From IMG/VR virus record IMGVR_UViG_2872164251_000007, positions 1 to 29,317 of that record: DNA of 29,317 bases. One strand, written 5' to 3'. The position numbers and the translations under genes are program-made. Below the pieces are notes generated by a model. It saw only the letters and a program-made list of their open reading frames with translations, ran no database searches and was not told the DNA's origin. Below are positions 1,206 through 11,317 of the stretch, piece after piece. Numbering within the stretch: the first letter of the stretch is position 1; each line of letters opens with the position of its first letter. The stretch comes from a virus. Its lineage: Duplodnaviria > Heunggongvirae > Uroviricota > Caudoviricetes.

Positions 1206-2807
1206 TTATTTTACAGACGAGAAGTTCCAGGGCAGCAGTTCATGCACTTGGTTCGACGGCCAGTCATTGAGCTTCTCGATCACTTCGCGCAACCAGTCCT
1301 CCGGCTCCACTTCGTTCTGTTTGCAGGTGACCAGCAGACTGTAGATGATCGCCGCACTTTCTCCTCCCTTGTCTGAGCCGAAAAAGAGATAATTTTTTCT
1401 TCCAACCGCCACCGATCGTAACGCGTTTTCACCGATGTTGTTGTCTATTTCCACCCAGCCGTCACGACAGAACTCGTTCAGCGCATTCCAGTGATTCAGG
1501 ATATAGTCGAACGCCTTCGCCATCTCCGCATGTTTCGACAGCGTTTTCCTCTGCAACTGTATCCAGTCGTACAACGACTGCATCAACTGGACGCTTCTGG
1601 CTTTTCTGACTGCAAGCCGTTCCTCTGCCGGACTGCCACGTATCTCCGCTTCTATGTCGTATAACTCTGCTATCCGTCTGAGCGCTTCCTGAGTCATTTC
1701 TGTCGGACGGCGCACATCCTCGTCATGGATTTTTCGGCGGGCGTGGGCCAGGCACCCGGCTTCCTTCACCCGGCCCGTTTCGTACAGTACGTTATAACCT
1801 GCATAGGCATCAGCCTGCAGTACGCCCTGATACTTTGCCAGGTGGAGCTGCGGATGTTCTCCTTTGCGATCTGCCGAATACGCGAACCAGACGGCTGCCG
1901 GCAGGGATGAACCCGCATTACGATCATCCCTGACGTATACCCACAGACGACCCGTTTTCGTCTTTCCGTTCCCCGGGGCCAGTACTTTCACCGGAGTGTC
2001 ATCTGCGTGCACCTTTCCTGCCTCCAGAACATAGTCATTCAGCGCTATATACAGAGGACGGAGTTTGTCTGCCATTTCTGATACCCAGCGCACCATGGTA
2101 TTACGGCTCAGCTCCACGCCCTGTCGCGCGTATATTTCTGACTGGCGATATAAAGGGATATGTTCCATATATTTGCTGACCAGGATCCGTGCAAGTAACC
2201 CTGCACTGGCATAACCGCGTTCGATCGGTTTAGGGGGAAGTGGTGCCTGAACGATGACATCACACCGGCTACAGGCCAGTTTGGGACGTATGGTTTCGAT
2301 AACTTTAAAGGCGGTATTAATGATATCCAGTTGCTCTGAGATTGTTTCCCCCATTTCTTTCAGAACACCTCCACAGGCCGGGCAACTGGTTTCAGCAGGC
2401 AGAAGGCGATGTGTCTCCCGGGGAAGTTCTGCCGGCAGCGGTTTTCGTGAAGATTTTCGTCCCGGGAATTCAGGCTTACTGGCGATCGGGTTTTCTGACG
2501 GGGGACTGGTGTCAGGTGAATCTGTGACTGACGATGCATCTTCCAGAAGATTTCTGGCTGTGTTCAGCCGGTTTTCCAGTTCCGACAGTCGTTTTTCTGC
2601 CTGTCGGATCTGATTTTCAAGCTTATGACGCTTTTTCTCTGAACTCTGGCCGAACAACATACGACGCAACCTGTCGAGTTGCGCTTTCAGCCGTTCAATT
2701 TCCTGCTCATAGCCCGCGACCTGACAGGCATACTGTCGAAGCCGACTCTGTTGCTTACGCAACATGGCTTTAAGCAGCTCAATATCATCGGGGAGTTCAT
2801 TGTTCAT
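1206..2807 (-). CDS. tnpC: IS66-family transposase TnpC (orf3)
   Basis: 533-aa ORF with N-terminal coiled-coil/leucine-zipper region and zinc-finger CxxC motifs typical of IS66 TnpC. Confidence 0.85.
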
Positions 2808-2826
2808 TCCCTTGTTTTATCACGGG

Positions 2827-3174
2827 TTATATCCGGATGCCAGGCCGTTCTGTCCGTTTGGGATGTTGCCACGCGATCCCCTCCAGTAGCATGGATAACT
2901 GAGCTGGCGTCAGGTGCACTTTCCCTTCCCGGGTCACCGGCCAGACGAAGCGGCCCCGTTCCAGGCGTTTGGCGAACAGGCATAACCCGTCACGATCGGC
3001 CCACAGTATTTTCACCATTTTGCCACTGCGGCCCCGGAAGACGAAGATATGCCCGGAGAACGGGTCATCTTTCAGCGTGTTCTGCACCTTCGAAGCCAGG
3101 CCATTGAAGCCACAACGCATATCTGTGATGCCAGCGATGATCCAGATTTTGGTACCGGTCGGCAGCGTTATCAT
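2827..3174 (-). CDS. tnpB: IS66-family TnpB (orf2)
   Basis: 115-aa ORF immediately upstream of tnpC and overlapping tnpA stop by 4 nt; size and sequence typical of IS66 Orf2. Confidence 0.8.
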   Translation of the reverse strand: MITLPTGTKIWIIAGITDMRCGFNGLASKVQNTLKDDPFSGHIFVFRGRSGKMVKILWADRDGLCLFAKRLERGRFVWPVTREGKVHLTPAQLSMLLEGIAWQHPKRTERPGIRI

Positions 3175-3845
3175 CGGATACCCCCTTTCATTTCGCGGAT
3201 TAGCGCCCGTAACAGTTCCGGAGTGAGAGGGTCAAACAGTTTTACCACACCTGATTTAAGATGCAGCTCGCACCGTGGGACGTTTCCGGGAGCCCCCTCA
3301 GGGCGCTCATCATGCTTGTTACGCCAGAAGGGATTTGTAACTGGTCTGGTCGGCTCCGGCGTATCAGTCAGTGCCACCGGGACAGGCATGCATTCCTGTA
3401 TGTCATCATCGCTCAGTAAGCCGTCCTCGTACTGGCTTTTCCATTTAAACAGCAGGTTATTATTGATATCGTGTTCTCTGGCGATCCGGGCAACAACAGC
3501 CCCAGGCTGTAACGCCTGCTTAGCCAGACGGACCTTAAATTCACGGCTATAGCTGGTTCGCCGTTCTTTTCGCCATGAGCCTTCTCTGATTTGAGGCTCT
3601 GTTAATTCCTTCTTTCTGTTGGCATAAAGGATGGCGTCAAGTTGAGCGAATGAAACTGAATCGGGCAATGGCCATGCGATACCGGATGCAAGAAATCGCT
3701 GAAAAAGCGTATGTATTGTGGAATGACTGAGACCCAGACGCTGAGCGATGGCCCGGATGGTCAGTTTATCTTCAAATCTTAAACGCAGGGCATCAGGCAA
3801 ATAAGAACGGAAGCAGGGAATATCTTTTGTTGTCTGGGAATTCAT
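3171..3845 (-). CDS. tnpA: IS66-family TnpA (orf1), HTH accessory protein
   Basis: 224-aa ORF at the 5' side of the tnpB/tnpC pair, inside the IS66-type inverted repeats. Confidence 0.7.
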   Translation of the reverse strand: MNSQTTKDIPCFRSYLPDALRLRFEDKLTIRAIAQRLGLSHSTIHTLFQRFLASGIAWPLPDSVSFAQLDAILYANRKKELTEPQIREGSWRKERRTSYSREFKVRLAKQALQPGAVVARIAREHDINNNLLFKWKSQYEDGLLSDDDIQECMPVPVALTDTPEPTRPVTNPFWRNKHDERPEGAPGNVPRCELHLKSGVVKLFDPLTPELLRALIREMKGGIR

Positions 3846-3927
3846 CGTTCGTGTCCATCAATATAGATGGGCGCGATTGTTGCCAGACAGGACAATTTTC
3901 ACAAGACGTCGCTGATGGGGCGCTTAC

Positions 3928-4212
3928 CGTTACTCTAAAGAGTTCAAAGCCGAAGCTGTCAGAACGGTTCTTGAAAATCAACTTTCGATCAGTGAAGGCG
4001 CTTCCCGATTATCCCTTCCTGAAGGCACTTTAGGACAATGGGTTACCGCCGCCAGAAAAGGGCTCGGTACTCCTGGTTCCCGCACGGTGGCTGAACTGGA
4101 ATCTGAAATTCTGCAACTGCGTAAGGCGTTAAATGAAGCTCGCCTTGAGCGAGATATATTAAAAAAAGCAACAGCGTATTTTGCACAGGAGTCGCTGAAA
4201 AATACGCGTTAA
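3928..4212 (+). pseudogene. IS600 orfA, 5'-truncated (no start codon)
   Basis: Open frame encoding YSKEFKAEAV...KNTR identical in register to orfA of the complete copy, but beginning at the junction with the IS66-family element. Confidence 0.75.
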
Positions 4213-4247
4213 TCGAACAATGGCGACAACAATTTCCCATTGAAGCG

Positions 4248-5066
4248 ATGTGTCAGGTATTTGGTGTATCCAGGAGCGGTTATTACAACTGGGTACAGCA
4301 TGAACCCTCAGACAGAAAACAAAGTGATGAGCGGCTAAAACTGGAGATTAAGGTGGCACATATCCGCACTCGCGAAACATATGGAACCCGGCGGCTCCAG
4401 ACGGAGCTGGCAGAGAATGGCATCATCGTTGGTCGTGACCGACTGGCACGTCTTCGTAAGGAGCTGAGGCTACGCTGTAAGCAGAAACGCAAGTTCAGAG
4501 CGACTACGAACCCGAACCACAATCTGCCAGTTGCGCCAAATCTGCTGAACCAGACGTTCGCTCCTACAGCACCAAATCAGGTCTGGGTGGCGGACCTGAC
4601 GTATGTTGCCACACAGGAGGGATGGTTGTACCTCGCTGGCATCAAAGATGTTTATACGTGTGAAATTGTCGGCTACGCCATGGGAGAGCGCATGACAAAA
4701 GAGCTGACAGGTAAAGCCCTGTTTATGGCGCTCAGGAGCCAGCGCCCACCTGCCGGGCTAATCCACCACTCTGATCGAGGTTCACAGTACTGCGCATACG
4801 ATTACCGGGTCATACAGGAGCAGTTTGGTCTGAAAACATCAATGTCGCGTAAAGGTAACTGTTACGACAACGCTCCGATGGAAAGCTTCTGGGGAACGCT
4901 GAAAAATGAGAGCCTGAGCCACTATCGTTTTAATAACCGGGATGAAGCCATCTCAGTAATACGGGAATACATTGAGATTTTCTACAATCGTCAGCGTCGT
5001 CACTCTCGTCTGGGGAATATCTCCCCGGCAGCCTTCAGGGAAAAATATCATCAGATGGCTGCTTAA
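4248..5066 (+). CDS. IS600 orfB (DDE transposase catalytic domain)
   Basis: 272-aa ORF identical to orfB of the complete IS600 copy; IS3-family DDE region; normally expressed as an OrfAB fusion by frameshifting. Confidence 0.85.
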   Translation: MCQVFGVSRSGYYNWVQHEPSDRKQSDERLKLEIKVAHIRTRETYGTRRLQTELAENGIIVGRDRLARLRKELRLRCKQKRKFRATTNPNHNLPVAPNLLNQTFAPTAPNQVWVADLTYVATQEGWLYLAGIKDVYTCEIVGYAMGERMTKELTGKALFMALRSQRPPAGLIHHSDRGSQYCAYDYRVIQEQFGLKTSMSRKGNCYDNAPMESFWGTLKNESLSHYRFNNRDEAISVIREYIEIFYNRQRRHSRLGNISPAAFREKYHQMAA

Positions 5067-5810: not shown

Positions 5811-6058
5811 GCCTACGACAAATCGAAGACAACCAGCTAACCTATTGTTTCTTAAAGACAGGTGAATCCAGTTGGTTGTAGTGATAGTCACACATTTAGA
5901 GATAGAAGGTCAAGACTTGAAGCACGTAATATTCCCTCTAAAGGAATAGAACTCACGGTCTGACTACCCGGCCCTTTTGGTCTGGCTGAAGTGGCACACT
6001 GAATTTGGCCACCTGAACAGAGGTGATATGCTCACCTCAGAACAACACAGGTGCTCCA

Positions 6059-7227
<1,169 letters not shown>

Positions 7228-7309
7228 CCACTTCAGGCTCAGGTCAGGCTATGGGGGCTTTTGGCTCGCTCTTTATATTAGATGAGGTCTCACATTTTTC
7301 AGTCAAAAC

Positions 7310-7390
7310 TCATCGTCTAATAGCCCATAGCCAGACCACCAGTCCCAGCTTTAGCAGGAAGACCACGAGATAGACTTTGTGTAGGTCCAT
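7310..7390 (-). CDS. Small hydrophobic peptide (26 aa), candidate membrane peptide
   Basis: ATG preceded by AGGAGG at 5-nt spacing; product MDLHKVYLVVFLLKLGLVVWLWAIRR; last ORF of the minus-strand gene array. Below the ORF-track size cutoff. Confidence 0.25.
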   Translation of the reverse strand: MDLHKVYLVVFLLKLGLVVWLWAIRR

Positions 7391-7485
7391 TTGGCCCTCC
7401 TACTTTCTGTATTCACGAACTAGATTACTAGTACAAAATAAAGGCCAGACATCCAGTTCGGAAGTCTGACCAATAGTCGTTATTG

Positions 7486-8475
7486 TTAGTTAGCTTCTTT
7501 AGTGAAGCTCAGGCGTTTGACTACAGGCAGGACAGCAGTAGCCGAGCCAGTACCCATCTTGATGGTCGTAGCAGCTTCAGCTACAACAAACACCTTGCCG
7601 AGAATCTCAAGGTCGTGAGACTGGGAGTCTCCATCACGTGAAAGGACCACAGTAATGCTCTCGCCATCGTGACGGAAGCAACCGAAGCTCAGAGCCGTAA
7701 AACGCTTAGCCATCATGAACACGCCACGGTCTTCACCGTTGTAATAGGCGACGTCAGTCCCCAGCATATCGACGATAGCGTCTTCACCACCGAAGCCCTG
7801 CTTAGCAGCCAGACGGGAGAGAGCCTTGAGGTGTGACTCATGGGCGATAATGCCGTAGTCAGAAACCTCAGAACCGAAAGAAGACTCCGTGTTCTCGTAC
7901 AGGGCATCCATGATAGCGTCAGCCTTAGCGGTCAGGCTACCAGTCAGGGCCGGAAGTTCTACGGTCTTCAGCAGCTTTGAGGACTCCAGCACGTCAACCA
8001 TCTTAGAGTTAATGGTACGAATCACGTTATCGCAGATGTTCAGTGCGTCCTGCTGGAGCGTCCCCTGAGTGAAACCAGTGGTCGACTTCTGGTCCCAAAG
8101 CTTTGTTTGGTGAGACACGAGGATCGCCTGTTCAATCGGCTCAACGGTGATTTCAGCGCCAGACGGAGCGGTCACAACTTCAGGTCGCTTACCACCACGG
8201 ACAGGGACCAGCACAGAGCGGTCAGCCAGAGTGTGAGCAATGATTGGAGTCGGTAAGCTGTTACGGGTCGGCAGGACTTCTACAGGGAACGGGATGTTAT
8301 CTTGAGCGTCTTTAAGTACACCGTTCAGCATAGCCTTAACAGTCTTAGCTAACTGGAGGGCATAGACCTGAGGGTCGGCGTTAGTCGGAAGGCCCTCATT
8401 AACCTGAAGGTTGTCGTTGTCGGTGATATGAACAGGCTCAATGCCAAACTGGAAAGCGTTTTTAGTCATATTCAT
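7486..8475 (-). CDS. Hypothetical protein, 329 aa (island cargo; function unknown)
   Basis: Long ORF with AAGGAGA RBS about 10 nt upstream; co-oriented and tightly packed with the upstream 163-aa ORF; I cannot assign a family by eye. Confidence 0.6.
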   Translation of the reverse strand: MNMTKNAFQFGIEPVHITDNDNLQVNEGLPTNADPQVYALQLAKTVKAMLNGVLKDAQDNIPFPVEVLPTRNSLPTPIIAHTLADRSVLVPVRGGKRPEVVTAPSGAEITVEPIEQAILVSHQTKLWDQKSTTGFTQGTLQQDALNICDNVIRTINSKMVDVLESSKLLKTVELPALTGSLTAKADAIMDALYENTESSFGSEVSDYGIIAHESHLKALSRLAAKQGFGGEDAIVDMLGTDVAYYNGEDRGVFMMAKRFTALSFGCFRHDGESITVVLSRDGDSQSHDLEILGKVFVVAEAATTIKMGTGSATAVLPVVKRLSFTKEAN

Positions 8476-8558
8476 TATAATTAATCTCCTTGAGTCAAAT
8501 ACTTGAAGTCCCTAACAGGCAGTCAGGGACCGTGTGTTCTCAGATGAGGGACGCTTGC

Positions 8559-9050
8559 TTACAAGCTGTCCATCCAGTTACCGCCTGACTCAAGGTCAGC
8601 GACGATAGCGGCACGTGAGCGACCAGCGGAATGAGTAGCGCTGCGGAGGTTTTCACCATAGGTCCGGCGTTCAGCTTTGACCTGTTCGCGGCGCTGTAGC
8701 TCTTTTTGCCATTCGTCTTCGGTCATGAACATTTCGCGGGTACGCTCTTTCTGAGACGCTAGCTCTTTAGCGATACGCTCAGCTTCAGCTCGTTTGTTCA
8801 TCTGGCGGCGTTGGTAGGCGGTCATCAGGTCATTACTGAAGAAGTTACCAATGGTCACGCCAGCTTCAGCCAGAGCTTCCAGTAACTCCATCGCCTCGCG
8901 GCTGGTGGACGGTAAGCCTGACAGGTAGCCCGGAATGAGGGTCTTGATAGCGAGCGACAACGGATAGGACTGACCGTCCAGACTCACAGTGTTTTCATAA
9001 AGGTTGATGTCGGTGACTGACAGCTTCCAGTTGTTGTTGTTGAACATCAT
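8559..9050 (-). CDS. Hypothetical protein, 163 aa, with charged coiled-coil-like C-terminal half
   Basis: ORF with AGGAGA RBS 7 nt upstream of ATG; C-terminal half rich in E/R/K/Q. Confidence 0.6.
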   Translation of the reverse strand: MMFNNNNWKLSVTDINLYENTVSLDGQSYPLSLAIKTLIPGYLSGLPSTSREAMELLEALAEAGVTIGNFFSNDLMTAYQRRQMNKRAEAERIAKELASQKERTREMFMTEDEWQKELQRREQVKAERRTYGENLRSATHSAGRSRAAIVADLESGGNWMDSL

Positions 9051-9169
9051 AGGTAATTCTCCTCTTGAGAGTTGAGACTATCGGTATCGCAGGCACAGTA
9101 AGGCCTACGGGTCTCCCCGCATCGGTCATCTCAAAAGGTGTTTAAATTAGGTATTGAGTAGGTGAGCTA

Positions 9170-9346
9170 CTAACGGTTAAGCGGCAGTTTCATAGCGACC
9201 AGTTGGGCTATTAGCTCGTCTCGGGATTGGTGCTGGCGGGTCTCATCTTCCGGGTCTAGACCAAGCTCTCTGAGGAGGACTTCAGTCCGGTAGCCACGGT
9301 AACGGAGAGTCATGCGCCCCTCAGGTGTGCGCGGGTCAATCATCAT
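9170..9346 (-). CDS. Small ORF, 58 aa
   Basis: Starts ATGATG one nucleotide after the Rha-family stop, GGAGGG about 7 nt upstream; product MMIDPRTPEGRMTLRYRGYRTEVLLRELGLDPEDETRQHQSRDELIAQLVAMKLPLNR. Below the ORF-track cutoff. Confidence 0.3.
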   Translation of the reverse strand: MMIDPRTPEGRMTLRYRGYRTEVLLRELGLDPEDETRQHQSRDELIAQLVAMKLPLNR

Positions 9347-10103
9347 CTTAGATTCCCTCCACCTTACCGGATTGTGCCAGCTTCAGGAGGTGCTCTTGCT
9401 TCTGCTGGTCGGTGCCAGTGAATGCAATAAGGATGCCTCGCATCTTGTCAACCATCTCAGGCTTACCGAAGACCTCCAGCCCCTTAGCGTTGAACCGGAA
9501 GTTATACCCACCTGCTGAGAACTTCTGGTCTGACGGCTTAATGATACGAAAGCAGTCGGAATACTTCGGATTTACAGACCACTCGTTACTGATTGGGTTC
9601 TTACGAAAGAGGCCACGATGCTGGAGAAGTGCGGTCATTAGCTTCTGAGCGGGCAGACCATAGGTTTTGCAGTAGTCGCCCCAAGTCACGCCTCGGCGGT
9701 TAGCGGACTGAATGGCTGCTCGCTTCTTCTGGTCTTCCAGTTGAAGGACTCGACGCTCTAACGTCTGAATATGGTCGTAACACTTGGCGCGGAGGTGAAC
9801 GGAATAGCCAGCGACCAGAATGAAAGTATGCTTACGGTCGAGACGATACAGCGGCTGCTGTTTCCCCTGCGCGTTTAGATAGACATCTTCAGTCACCCCG
9901 ATATGACTGCTCAGTTTTGAGCACTGCTCAGTTTTGAGCGCGTTAAGCTCCTCAGCCATATTGCGAATATCACGCAGGACATTTCGGTGCTCCTTGCCTG
10001 TCAGCTCAGCAATTTCAACTGAGGTCATGGAGACAAGCTGGTCGAGGTTTGAACCGCCCCGGGAATCCTGGAGACTAAACTTCCTGAGAAAGAGGTAAAC
10101 AGG

Positions 10104-10430
10104 ATGACTAAAAATACTCGTTTTTCCCCCGAAGTCCGTCAACGGGCAGTCCGTATGGTTCTGGAAAGTCAGGGCGAATATGACTCACAATGGGCGACAA
10201 TTTGTTCCATTGCTCCAAAGATTGGCTGTACGCCGGAGACTCTGCGTGTCTGGGTTCGCCAGCATGAGCGGGATACCGGGGGCGGTGATGGAGGGCTCAC
10301 CACCGCTGAACGTCAGCGTCTGAAAGAGCTGGAGCGTGAAAATCGTGAACTGCGCCGCAGTAACGATATCCTTCGCCAGGCTTCCGCTTATTTTGCGAAG
10401 GCGGAGTTCGACCGCCTCTGGAAAAAATGA
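10104..10430 (+). CDS. IS629 orfA
   Basis: 108-aa [24 protein letters not shown]... with HTH and leucine-zipper features. Confidence 0.85.
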
Positions 10431-11317
10431 TGCCACTGCTGGATAAGCTGCGTGAGCAGTACGGGGTCGGACCGCTATGCAGCGAACTGCATATTGCCCC
10501 GTCAACGTATTACCACTGTCAGCAACAGCGACATCATCCGGATAAACGCAGTGCCCGTGCGCAGCGCGATGACTGGCTGAAGAAAGAGATACAGCGCGTA
10601 TACGATGAAAATCACAAGGTATACGGTGTGCGTAAAGTCTGGCGTCAGTTGTTACGGGAAGGTATCAGAGTGGCCAGATGCACTGTGGCACGTCTCATGG
10701 CGGTTATGGGACTTGCCGGTGTTCTCCGGGGTAAAAAGGTCCGTACGACCATCAGCCGGAAAGCCGTTGCCGCAGGCGACCGCGTAAACCGTCAGTTCGT
10801 GGCAGAACGACCTGACCAGCTGTGGGTGGCTGATTTTACTTACGTCAGCACATGGCAGGGCTTCGTCTATGTGGCGTTCATCATTGATGTGTTTGCCGGA
10901 TGCATCGTGGGGTGGCGGGTCTCATCGTCCATGGAAACGACATTCGTGCTGGATGCACTGGAGCAGGCGTTATGGGCCCGTCGACCGTCCGGCACGGTCC
11001 ATCACAGTGATAAAGGTTCTCAGTATGTATCGCTGGCCTACACACAGCGGCTTAAGGAAGCCGGATTACTGGCATCAACAGGAAGTACAGGCGACTCGTA
11101 TGACAACGCGATGGCGGAGAGCATCAATGGTCTTTACAAAGCGGAGGTAATACACCGTAAGAGCTGGAAAAACCGTGCAGAAGTGGAACTGGCCACACTA
11201 ACGTGGGTGGACTGGTATAACAATCGACGATTGCTGGAAAGGCTGGGCCACATCCCTCCGGCAGAAGCAGAAAAAGCTTATTATGCTTCCATCGGAAACG
11301 ATGATCTGGCAGCCTGA
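10427..11317 (+). CDS. IS629 orfB (DDE transposase domain)
   Basis: 296-aa ORF overlapping orfA end; IS3-family DDE region. Confidence 0.85.

Follow-up and report, generated by a model that had tools for sequence, protein, structure and literature searches.

What is encoded by the compact array of unrecognised genes on the minus strand at positions 7310-9346 of the viral record IMGVR_UViG_2872164251_000007, and why does it lie downstream of promoters of the T7 type? The window, i.e., the whole stretch of 29,317 nucleotides analysed here, had been described in a first-pass annotation as carrying in this region open reading frames (ORFs) of 58, 163, 329 and 26 amino acids (aa), for which either a satellite capsid/scaffold pair or a sensor-effector defence pair was proposed. 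With moderate confidence we read the array as the phage-dependent late operon of an integrative element that represents a new family of phage satellites, with virulent podophages of the T7 type (Autographiviridae, chiefly Kayfunavirus) as helpers. The features on which this view is built are collected in Table 1; related copies of the element are denoted by locus numbers (L).

Table 1. Features of the element in the window, from the right end of the element to the tRNA gene.
Feature	Coordinates	Strand	Basis or sequence
Right-end/terminal-repeat junction mimic, candidate pac site	7235..7322	-	GACGATGAGTTTTG..GAAAAATGTGAGACC..ATCTAATA..CCCCCATAG
p26, conserved hydrophobic peptide, 26 aa	7310..7390	-	conserved frame
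Terminator-like hairpin	7435..7471	-	GGUCAGAC..GUCUGGCC then UUUAUUUU; fold energy
HK97-fold capsid (shell) protein, 329 aa (predicted)	7486..8475	-	structure model and Foldseek
p163, candidate scaffolding/shell-binding protein	8559..9050	-	position, composition
p58, small conserved protein	9170..9346	-	conserved in all elements
Rha-family regulator	9348..10049	-	Pfam Phage_pRha E 4.3e-18; PHROG anti-repressor E 2e-69
IS3-family insertion, foreign to the element (orfA 10104-10430, orfB 10427-11317)	10050..11380	+	
Conserved long 5' leader of the operon	11381..11702	-	84% match to L004 leader
P3, proximal operon promoter	11703..11726	-	ACTAAACTATCACTATAGGGACCA
Conserved structured non-coding RNA, downstream of P1/P2	11860..12263	-	alignment A6
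Tandem T7-family promoters P1 (12292-12315) and P2 (12264-12287)	12264..12315	-	CACCTCACTATAGAGG (P1), TTAACTATCACTATAGGGGAGA (P2)
p202, variable-slot gene next to the integrase	12320..12928	-	89% identical in L004
Tyrosine integrase type A, 536 aa	12960..14570	-	Pfam Phage_integrase E 1.6e-18
tRNA-Gly(UCC), left attachment site	14705..14779	-	ARAGORN
att core, tRNA 3' end	14705-14722		TTCCCTTCGCCCGCTCCA

The four ORFs are present where they had been placed, and each is preceded at a distance of 5-9 nt by a Shine-Dalgarno-like sequence (GGAGGG, GAGGAG, AAGGAG and AGGAGG), as the first-pass annotation had claimed. Wherever a related locus is long enough, the genes for p58, p163 and the 329-aa protein follow one another in this order. 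In the comparison with the L004 copy, which is 60-71% identical to the window genes at the DNA level, the ratios of nonsynonymous to synonymous substitution rates (dN/dS) were 0.35 for p58, 0.24 for p163 and 0.24 for the 329-aa gene, at dS values of ~1.0-1.2 that are near saturation. The recurrent order of the trio, these ratios and the preservation of the p26 frame mean that the ORFs are real genes and more than chance, and by the same ratios the core genes are under purifying selection. The suggestion that one operon follows the Rha gene agrees with the conserved gene order and with a p58 start codon only 2 nt past the Rha stop in the window; p26, however, lies beyond a terminator-like hairpin and because of it may be outside the operon transcript. 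No sigma-70-like promoter was found within 7230-10060 (1.5 expected). The phage promoters upstream of the array are likewise present, but an IS3-family insertion sequence (IS) at ~10050-11380 parts the operon from the nearest of them.

Searches of Pfam, PHROGs, PADLOC and NCBIfam gave no significant match to p58, p163, the 329-aa protein or p26; the first-pass annotation had likewise been unable to place the two larger proteins in a family by eye. Against a collection of 50,697 phage genomes, the array matched only IS ends in megablast, and the 329-aa protein gave no match in tblastn. Assignment to ordinary lambdoid prophage functions, which had been named in advance as the outcome that would count against a special role of the array, is thus not what these phage genomes indicate.

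The argument for a satellite starts from the 329-aa protein, which is, on the evidence of a structure model, an HK97-fold shell protein; the search for this fold had been named beforehand as the test of the capsid proposal, and its outcome was positive. A model built from 11 close homologues alone reached a predicted local distance difference test score (pLDDT) of 35.6, and distant relatives were needed for a confident model; the wide alignment gave a pLDDT of 85.4 and a predicted template modelling score (pTM) of 0.79. Foldseek comparison of this model with the PDB yielded 222 matches at E<=1e-3, and those listed were all phage major capsid proteins or encapsulins. In BFVD it matched 197 viral capsid proteins, with identities not above 14% among the best 50 of the 197. 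The model has the HK97 fold, as defined by an N-arm, an E-loop hairpin, a P domain with a long spine helix and an A domain. At the level of sequence the only PHROG match is a chance-level one (E 0.021), which places the protein in no curated capsid family.

The 329-aa capsid family is rare. A word-indexed search found 32 close relatives, all from Enterobacteriaceae, and a second such search with a wide profile of the family returned almost only close relatives; an exhaustive search of 1.84 billion representative proteins with a hidden Markov model (HMM) profile produced 66 matches, about 35 of which are full-length relatives at 20-42% identity. A Big_2 Ig-like domain, of a kind common on virion surface proteins, is present at the C-terminus of one distant member. 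When the proteome of Citrobacter phage CR44b (Kayfunavirus), a candidate helper, was compared by HMM and hhalign, the 329-aa protein had no sequence similarity to gp10 and p163 none to gp9. To judge from this lack of resemblance to the helper gp10, the 329-aa protein looks as if it forms a separate shell for the element and does not modify the helper capsid. Recent copying of the capsid gene from a helper was also considered and was rejected on the same comparison with CR44b. In one locus (L003, 10563-16433) an insert of ~4.9 kb, with coding regions for a reverse transcriptase of the group II intron type (RVT_1 and GIIM) and for an IS110 transposase, splits the capsid gene.

The array forms the right half of a compact integrative element that measures 6.35-6.45 kb between its attachment site (att) repeats. 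The order begins with the integrase, a variable second gene (RAZR/PD-T7-4 or p202), the T7-type promoters, a non-coding RNA (ncRNA) of ~400 nt and a variable regulator (Rha or KilA-N), and continues with p58, p163, the capsid gene, the hairpin, p26 and a mimic of the terminal-repeat junction of T7-like phages. A DNA-only search with a motif from the non-coding region revealed 21 related metagenomic loci and one related viral locus, with an identical order in every locus long enough, and copies at 33-42% identity have the layout unchanged. The modules that vary are the integrase (two types), the second gene (two variants) and the regulator (at least four), while the ncRNA, p58, p163 and the capsid gene constitute the invariant core. 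Genes for a portal, terminase, protease, tail, lysis or replication are absent from the complete gene complement of the intact 6.4-kb elements. By sequence, the element shows what is generally expected of a satellite: a recombinase with att repeats, no autonomous lytic genes, and cis signals of helper type.

The hosts of the element are E. coli, Shigella, Citrobacter, Enterobacter, Leclercia and Buttiauxella, and units that are intact and have both att repeats were met in six or more genera, inserted at either of two unrelated sites. At one site the core at the 3' end of tRNA-Gly is repeated at the far end of intact elements (L020, L018, L033, L035, L036, L039), and the type A integrase is 94-100% identical in the sister elements that adjoin this tRNA. 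The array genes follow tRNA-Gly, an integrase and a DUF4145 gene in E. coli 5444 as well. At the other site, a diverged copy (64-70% protein identity) sits inside a molybdopterin-oxidoreductase gene and holds a different integrase, KilA-N in place of Rha, a 63-aa homologue of p58, p163, the capsid gene and nothing else; a 20-nt direct repeat, TGACACAAGGCTGACACAAA, marks the oxidoreductase site in L004 (5479-5498 and 11927-11946). Insertion by this second type of integrase splits the oxidoreductase gene (ynfE/F- or dmsA-like) in two in L004, L002, L005, L007 and L008. The spacing of the att cores is 6350-6450 bp in seven independent copies (L020, L018, L004, L033, L035, L036, L039), and this uniformity despite swapped integrases, second genes and regulators suggests a size constraint. 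The possibility that the array consists of ordinary lambdoid prophage genes was rejected, as the unit is self-contained, has its own att repeats and occupies two unrelated sites.

The connection with T7-like phages is made by the promoters. Two to four T7-type promoters, all on the operon strand, are located in the sole long intergenic region, which extends from the second gene to the regulator, and the set is present in every element with an intact intergenic region. To judge from their sequences they belong to the T7 group, with its 23-nt consensus, the CACTATAGG core and the phage-specific region from -8 to -12. With 0 copies expected, the window holds the 16-mer AACTATCACTATAGGG twice, and its class is the consensus of 11 annotated promoters of CR44b; P2 and P3 match this consensus (ACTAAACTATCACTATAGGGA), and P3 is identical over the 22 nt of ACTAAACTATCACTATAGGGAC to the CR44b promoter at 15891. 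The element promoters also match the phiOR-like promoter of phage Dev2. A 58-nt query over the tandem pair matched 245 phage records, with the best match at the phiOR-like promoter near the right genome end; the best 40 of the 245 are ~37.9-40.4 kb long, except two short or partial ones, and nearly all are named as Enterobacteria or Vibrio phages. A second promoter class (ACCCTCACTATAGGG) has CC at -10/-11, like the T3 phiOR promoter, and may therefore point to a second class of helper. In intact elements the leader downstream of the promoters continues directly into the regulator gene.

Two distant capsid branches of 27-33% identity have promoters of the phage-polymerase type with different specificities, namely four TAATTCCTACCACTATAGGGAGA-like sites in L011 and two copies of TAAACCCCGACTATAGAGAG in L009, and the association of such promoters with the capsid family looks general. 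The capsid genes of these branches sit in other integrase-bearing elements, to which the repeated promoters belong (L011 2614-7550 and 8764-10347; L009 7750-7800 and 11460-11485), and L011 also holds a T7 gp0.4-like Pfam match, a ParE-like gene and an HNH gene.

The opposite end of the element resembles the right end of T7-like genomes. In blastn the junction mimic matches 87 T7-like phage records at ~72-73% identity over 97 nt, and in every record with an annotated terminal repeat the match lies at that repeat. The blocks that are invariant between elements and phages (alignment A7), namely CGATGAGTTTTG, AAAA.T.TGAG, ATCT.A.A and CCCCATAG, bracket the annotated start of the repeat, and T7 and T3 show the same arrangement; CR44b has a single copy of CGATGAGTTTTG, 31 nt ahead of its terminal repeat. 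The peptide p26 fits into this picture, as its position is like that of gene 19.5 of T7-like phages, a small one-helix membrane protein; the CR44b version, with a single predicted membrane helix, is flanked by the phiOR-like promoter and the right terminal repeat. The p26 product is itself a one-helix hydrophobic peptide with a basic end, and six sequence variants all preserve its frame and a GGAGG site, one of them with two codons inserted in frame. The layout of the element, with promoter, small membrane ORF and junction, hence mirrors the phiOR, gene 19.5 and terminal repeat of the T7-like right end. The hairpin that precedes p26 (7443-7471) has a folding energy of -19.7 kcal/mol (z -3.56) and is conserved in L020.

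Between P2 and P3 lies the ncRNA of ~400 nt, with ~90% identity between copies in which the coding genes agree at 60-71%; this region is the best conserved part of the element, above the protein genes. Alignment A6 comprises 24 loci with a mean column identity of 85%, L045 (a chance match) and L027 (incomplete) having been left out. RNAalifold predicted 104 pairs on this alignment, 11 of them with compensatory double changes and one with three pair types. The paired cells amount to 98.9% as against 33-42% when the partners were slid, and the covariation score was reached by none of 500 shuffles. A scan of the whole element against Rfam gave no match.

The gene for p163 is invariably found directly upstream of the capsid gene, and from this position and from its composition we regard the protein as a candidate scaffold or shell-binding protein. 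Its earlier description as a coiled-coil protein captures the charged helical centre, but the layout also includes a globular N-terminal part of ~75 aa and a conserved C-terminal tail (GRSRA..NWMDSL). The p163 family profile has a sole structural relative in the PDB, 5EUR, an uncharacterised protein of 136 aa (E 1.4e-15); a literature search on 5EUR yielded nothing relevant, and the solved structure could give a structure-based handle on the role of p163. Weak Pfam matches to DUF6971 appear in some family members. No enzyme domain was found in p163 in scans that included Pfam and NCBIfam. The companion p58 is 53-100% identical across all elements, matched no family in the four libraries searched and has no detectable relatives outside the elements. 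The Rha gene of the window has lost its first nine codons to the IS, so that the next in-frame ATG is at 10028 and the homology to an intact Rha gene begins at 10049; in sister elements the regulator slot is filled by a KilA-N protein or by unrelated proteins of 161 or 188 aa.

The gene next to the integrase provides a further link to T7. In many sister elements the slot gene that overlaps the integrase is PD-T7-4/RAZR (in L020, at 6827-7486, PADLOC E 1.3e-102), while the slot in the window holds an unrelated 202-aa protein. Vassallo et al., who recovered PD-T7-4 in a T7 selection, state that the system 'often overlaps an integrase gene' (PMC9519451), and a further study describes RAZR as a HEPN RNase that becomes active when it assembles around the portal rings of T7/T3 (PMC13017515). 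The presence of RAZR in sister elements ties the element ecologically to T7-like phages. The term 'T7 promoter' does not occur in the main text of PMC9519451, nor do 'satellite', 'mobile' and 'integrase' in that of PMC13017515, and term searches of these two main texts met no description of the rest of the element. The window p202 lacks the marks of RAZR (the PADLOC PD-T7-4 model, the zinc finger and the DUF4145 HEPN domain), has no Pfam, PADLOC or NCBIfam match and is not similar to RAZR by BLASTP; inspection by eye revealed an R-x4-H motif (EVRDAIAHG) in it. The proposal of a sensor-effector defence pair does not fit the array genes; a genuine defence gene, PD-T7-4/RAZR, is found elsewhere, beside the integrase of sister copies.

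The satellite proposal gains from the HK97 fold, the integrase and att repeats, the T7-type promoters and the junction mimic, with the scaffold half of the pair drawn from the position and composition of p163. On this basis the following cycle may be envisaged. The element would stay silent at tRNA-Gly or in the ynfE/F-like gene, where host signals would express only the integrase and the variable gene. Upon infection by a T7-like phage, the single-subunit RNA polymerase of the helper would recognise the promoters of the element, which match those of the phage in sequence, and would read the ncRNA and then the regulator, p58, p163 and the capsid gene. A shell sized for a small genome would be built from the HK97-fold protein, probably on a scaffold of p163; as 6.4 kb is ~16% of the T7 genome, rough volume scaling would give a shell of about T=3, not T=7. 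For the portal, terminase, core, tail, replication and lysis, none of which it encodes, the element would depend on the helper. Finally, the helper terminase would recognise the copy of its junction, whose homology to the phage junction is observed, and would package the element for transfer.

Several observations weigh against this cycle. Dependence on T7-like phages seems hard to reconcile with the carriage of RAZR, an RNase of abortive infection that T7/T3 portals trigger. The fit of the shell with a T7-like portal, core and tail is uncertain, since no sequence similarity links the capsid protein to gp10 or p163 to gp9. The sequences gave no sign of excision, replication or encapsidation, and no excisionase or replication gene was recognised in the element. 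Metagenomes contained no circular or attP-type contigs, and the IMG/VR matches (16-73 kb, with isolate-genome-style names) appear to be predicted prophage regions and not sequenced particles. The blastn E-values of the junction mimic are modest, from 9e-4 to 0.1.

Some of these points would be accommodated by a phage-triggered defence island, in which the promoters sense infection and the capsid-like protein, p163 and the junction mimic are decoys that poison assembly or titrate the terminase, the unit itself being unpackaged. A proven anti-T7 system, PD-T7-4/RAZR, occupies the adjacent slot of sister elements (PMC13017515, main text), the promoters would limit expression to infected cells, the metagenome search found no encapsidated or circular form, and similarity to the helper capsid that would guarantee co-assembly into infectious particles is missing. 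We nevertheless consider such an island unlikely. The integrase, the intact att repeats and the uniform length of 6.35-6.45 kb across species and at two sites suggest a constraint of packaged-genome size, and a complete conserved HK97 protein with a partner exceeds the needs of a decoy. Moreover, known satellites also interfere with their helpers, so that defence and transfer are compatible.

An encapsulin-like nanocompartment carried by a mobile island, with a closed shell of the 329-aa protein and with p163 as a cargo or adaptor loaded through its C-terminal tail, has in our view little probability. In family 1 encapsulin operons an upstream partner gene with a C-terminal peptide is typical, and here too the partner gene lies directly upstream and ends in a conserved peptide. 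Mini-elements of ~8.9 kb that lack a portal and combine an integrase and a scaffold with an encapsulin-like capsid are also on record (bioRxiv 10.1101/2025.06.18.659913). Neither the 329-aa protein nor any of 37 family members, however, matches the Pfam models of encapsulins or the phage_coat clan, and p163 is devoid of an enzyme domain. Phage-polymerase promoters as expression signals, the packaging-junction mimic beside the capsid gene and the virion-typical Ig-like domain on a distant family member also speak against a nanocompartment. As far as sequence goes, the proteins do not qualify as an encapsulin system, and the shared fold together with the conserved tail of p163 would still be compatible with a functional resemblance. 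Still less credible, and close to negligible, is an inert remnant of a lambdoid or temperate T7-like prophage whose genes are leftovers without present function. It could account for a disrupted window copy amid the IS-rich remains of a lambdoid prophage, and Rha genes are common in prophages; but the 6.4-kb unit with both att repeats is intact in at least six genera at two unrelated sites, its genes are under purifying selection and the array genes occur in none of the 50,697 phage genome records.

No description of satellites of T7-like phages, or of the present element, was found in full-text literature searches. Membership in known satellite groups was rejected, as the hallmark genes of P4-like satellites (psu/sid/delta/alpha) and of phage-inducible chromosomal islands (PICIs; alpA, pri-rep, terS/rpp, cpm) had no Pfam, PHROG or NCBIfam match among the element genes of the window or L004, and as the head and packaging set of capsid-forming PICIs (cf-PICIs; terminase, portal, protease, capsid, connectors) is represented in the element only by the capsid protein and p163. 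The cf-PICIs, such as EcCI2, are larger and encode the full head and packaging set (terminase, portal, protease, connectors), and their helpers, temperate tailed phages, supply only tails; the present element has 6.4 kb, only a shell protein and a putative scaffold, phage-polymerase promoters, and indications of virulent T7-like helpers. The Ccm protein of SaPIbov5 is a homologue of the helper capsid protein with which it co-assembles, whereas the element capsid has no detectable similarity to gp10 of the candidate helper. PICI-like elements (PLEs) of Vibrio cholerae and phage-inducible chromosomal minimalist islands (PICMIs) resemble the proposed satellite in that they are small chromosomal islands activated by virulent phages, lack a structural gene set of their own and double as defence. 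The helper of PLE is ICP1 and those of PICMIs are Schitoviridae, and the external scaffold TcaP of PLE acts on the helper capsid protein. PLEs and PICMIs are not known to carry phage-polymerase promoters or a capsid gene of their own, both of which the element has.

Plasmids with a T7 origin or promoter and the concatemer junction, as is said to have been described by Chung and Hinkle in J Mol Biol in 1990, are replicated and packaged by T7. Such T7 plasmid transduction systems share with the element both cis elements, the T7-class promoter and the terminal-repeat junction, which are reportedly enough for a helper to propagate foreign DNA, but they are laboratory constructs, whereas the element would be a natural case with its own capsid gene. 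The nearest concept is that of portal-less 'mini' HK97 elements from gut viromes. These encapsulin-like 'mini viral entities' resemble the element in having an integrase, a capsid and a scaffold and no portal, terminase or tail genes; they average 8.9 kb, come from gut metagenomes and encode Pfam-detectable encapsulin domains, RepA/helicase and sigma factors (bioRxiv 10.1101/2025.06.18.659913). The element differs from them by the lack of a Pfam capsid signal and of replication genes, and by a helper link made explicit through promoters and junction. Whether it represents the first satellite family of T7-like phages, of ~6.4 kb, induced by the helper polymerase, with a private HK97 shell, junction-based packaging, an ncRNA and a swappable gene that is often RAZR, is in our judgement evenly balanced.

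The copy in the window is probably no longer mobile, as two IS insertions have disrupted it and attR has been lost; the att core is present in one copy only (attL) and no attR was found in the window. The IS3-family insertion, one end of which matches IS copies in Shiga toxin (Stx) phages, parts P3 and the leader from the operon genes, and IS911 ends the junction mimic at ~7234, ~20 nt after CCCCCATAG. Apart from the nine lost Rha codons the coding genes are intact. The tRNA-Gly(UCC) gene closes a tight Met-Arg-Thr-Gly tRNA array (14705-15015), beside which the region 15224-29317 contains the lambdoid genes ORF6N, Q-like DUF1133, DUF1367 and a DnaC-like ATPase; given these neighbours, the satellite-like element lies inside a prophage remnant and not at the chromosomal glyU. 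Insertion sequences have piled up at 1206-5066, 6023-7234, 10050-11380 and 16755-17495, among them an IS66-family member, another IS3-family transposase, IS911, the IS3-family element in the satellite and an IS91-type fragment, a density typical of Shigella-like genome decay.

Few phages have been studied and used as much as T7 and its relatives, which serve as therapy candidates, in expression systems and in defence screens. If the satellite explanation is true, a hidden route of horizontal transfer and phage interference would exist in E. coli, Shigella, Citrobacter and Enterobacter, and phage-polymerase promoters would have a natural use as an infection sensor. The element would supply RAZR/PD-T7-4 with its missing genomic context and would add a new structured RNA without an Rfam family. 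One shell gene and one partner would make up a minimal capsid system, suited to studies of capsid size determination and to engineering, and the relation of encapsulins to small portal-less HK97 elements becomes experimentally approachable in a tractable host.

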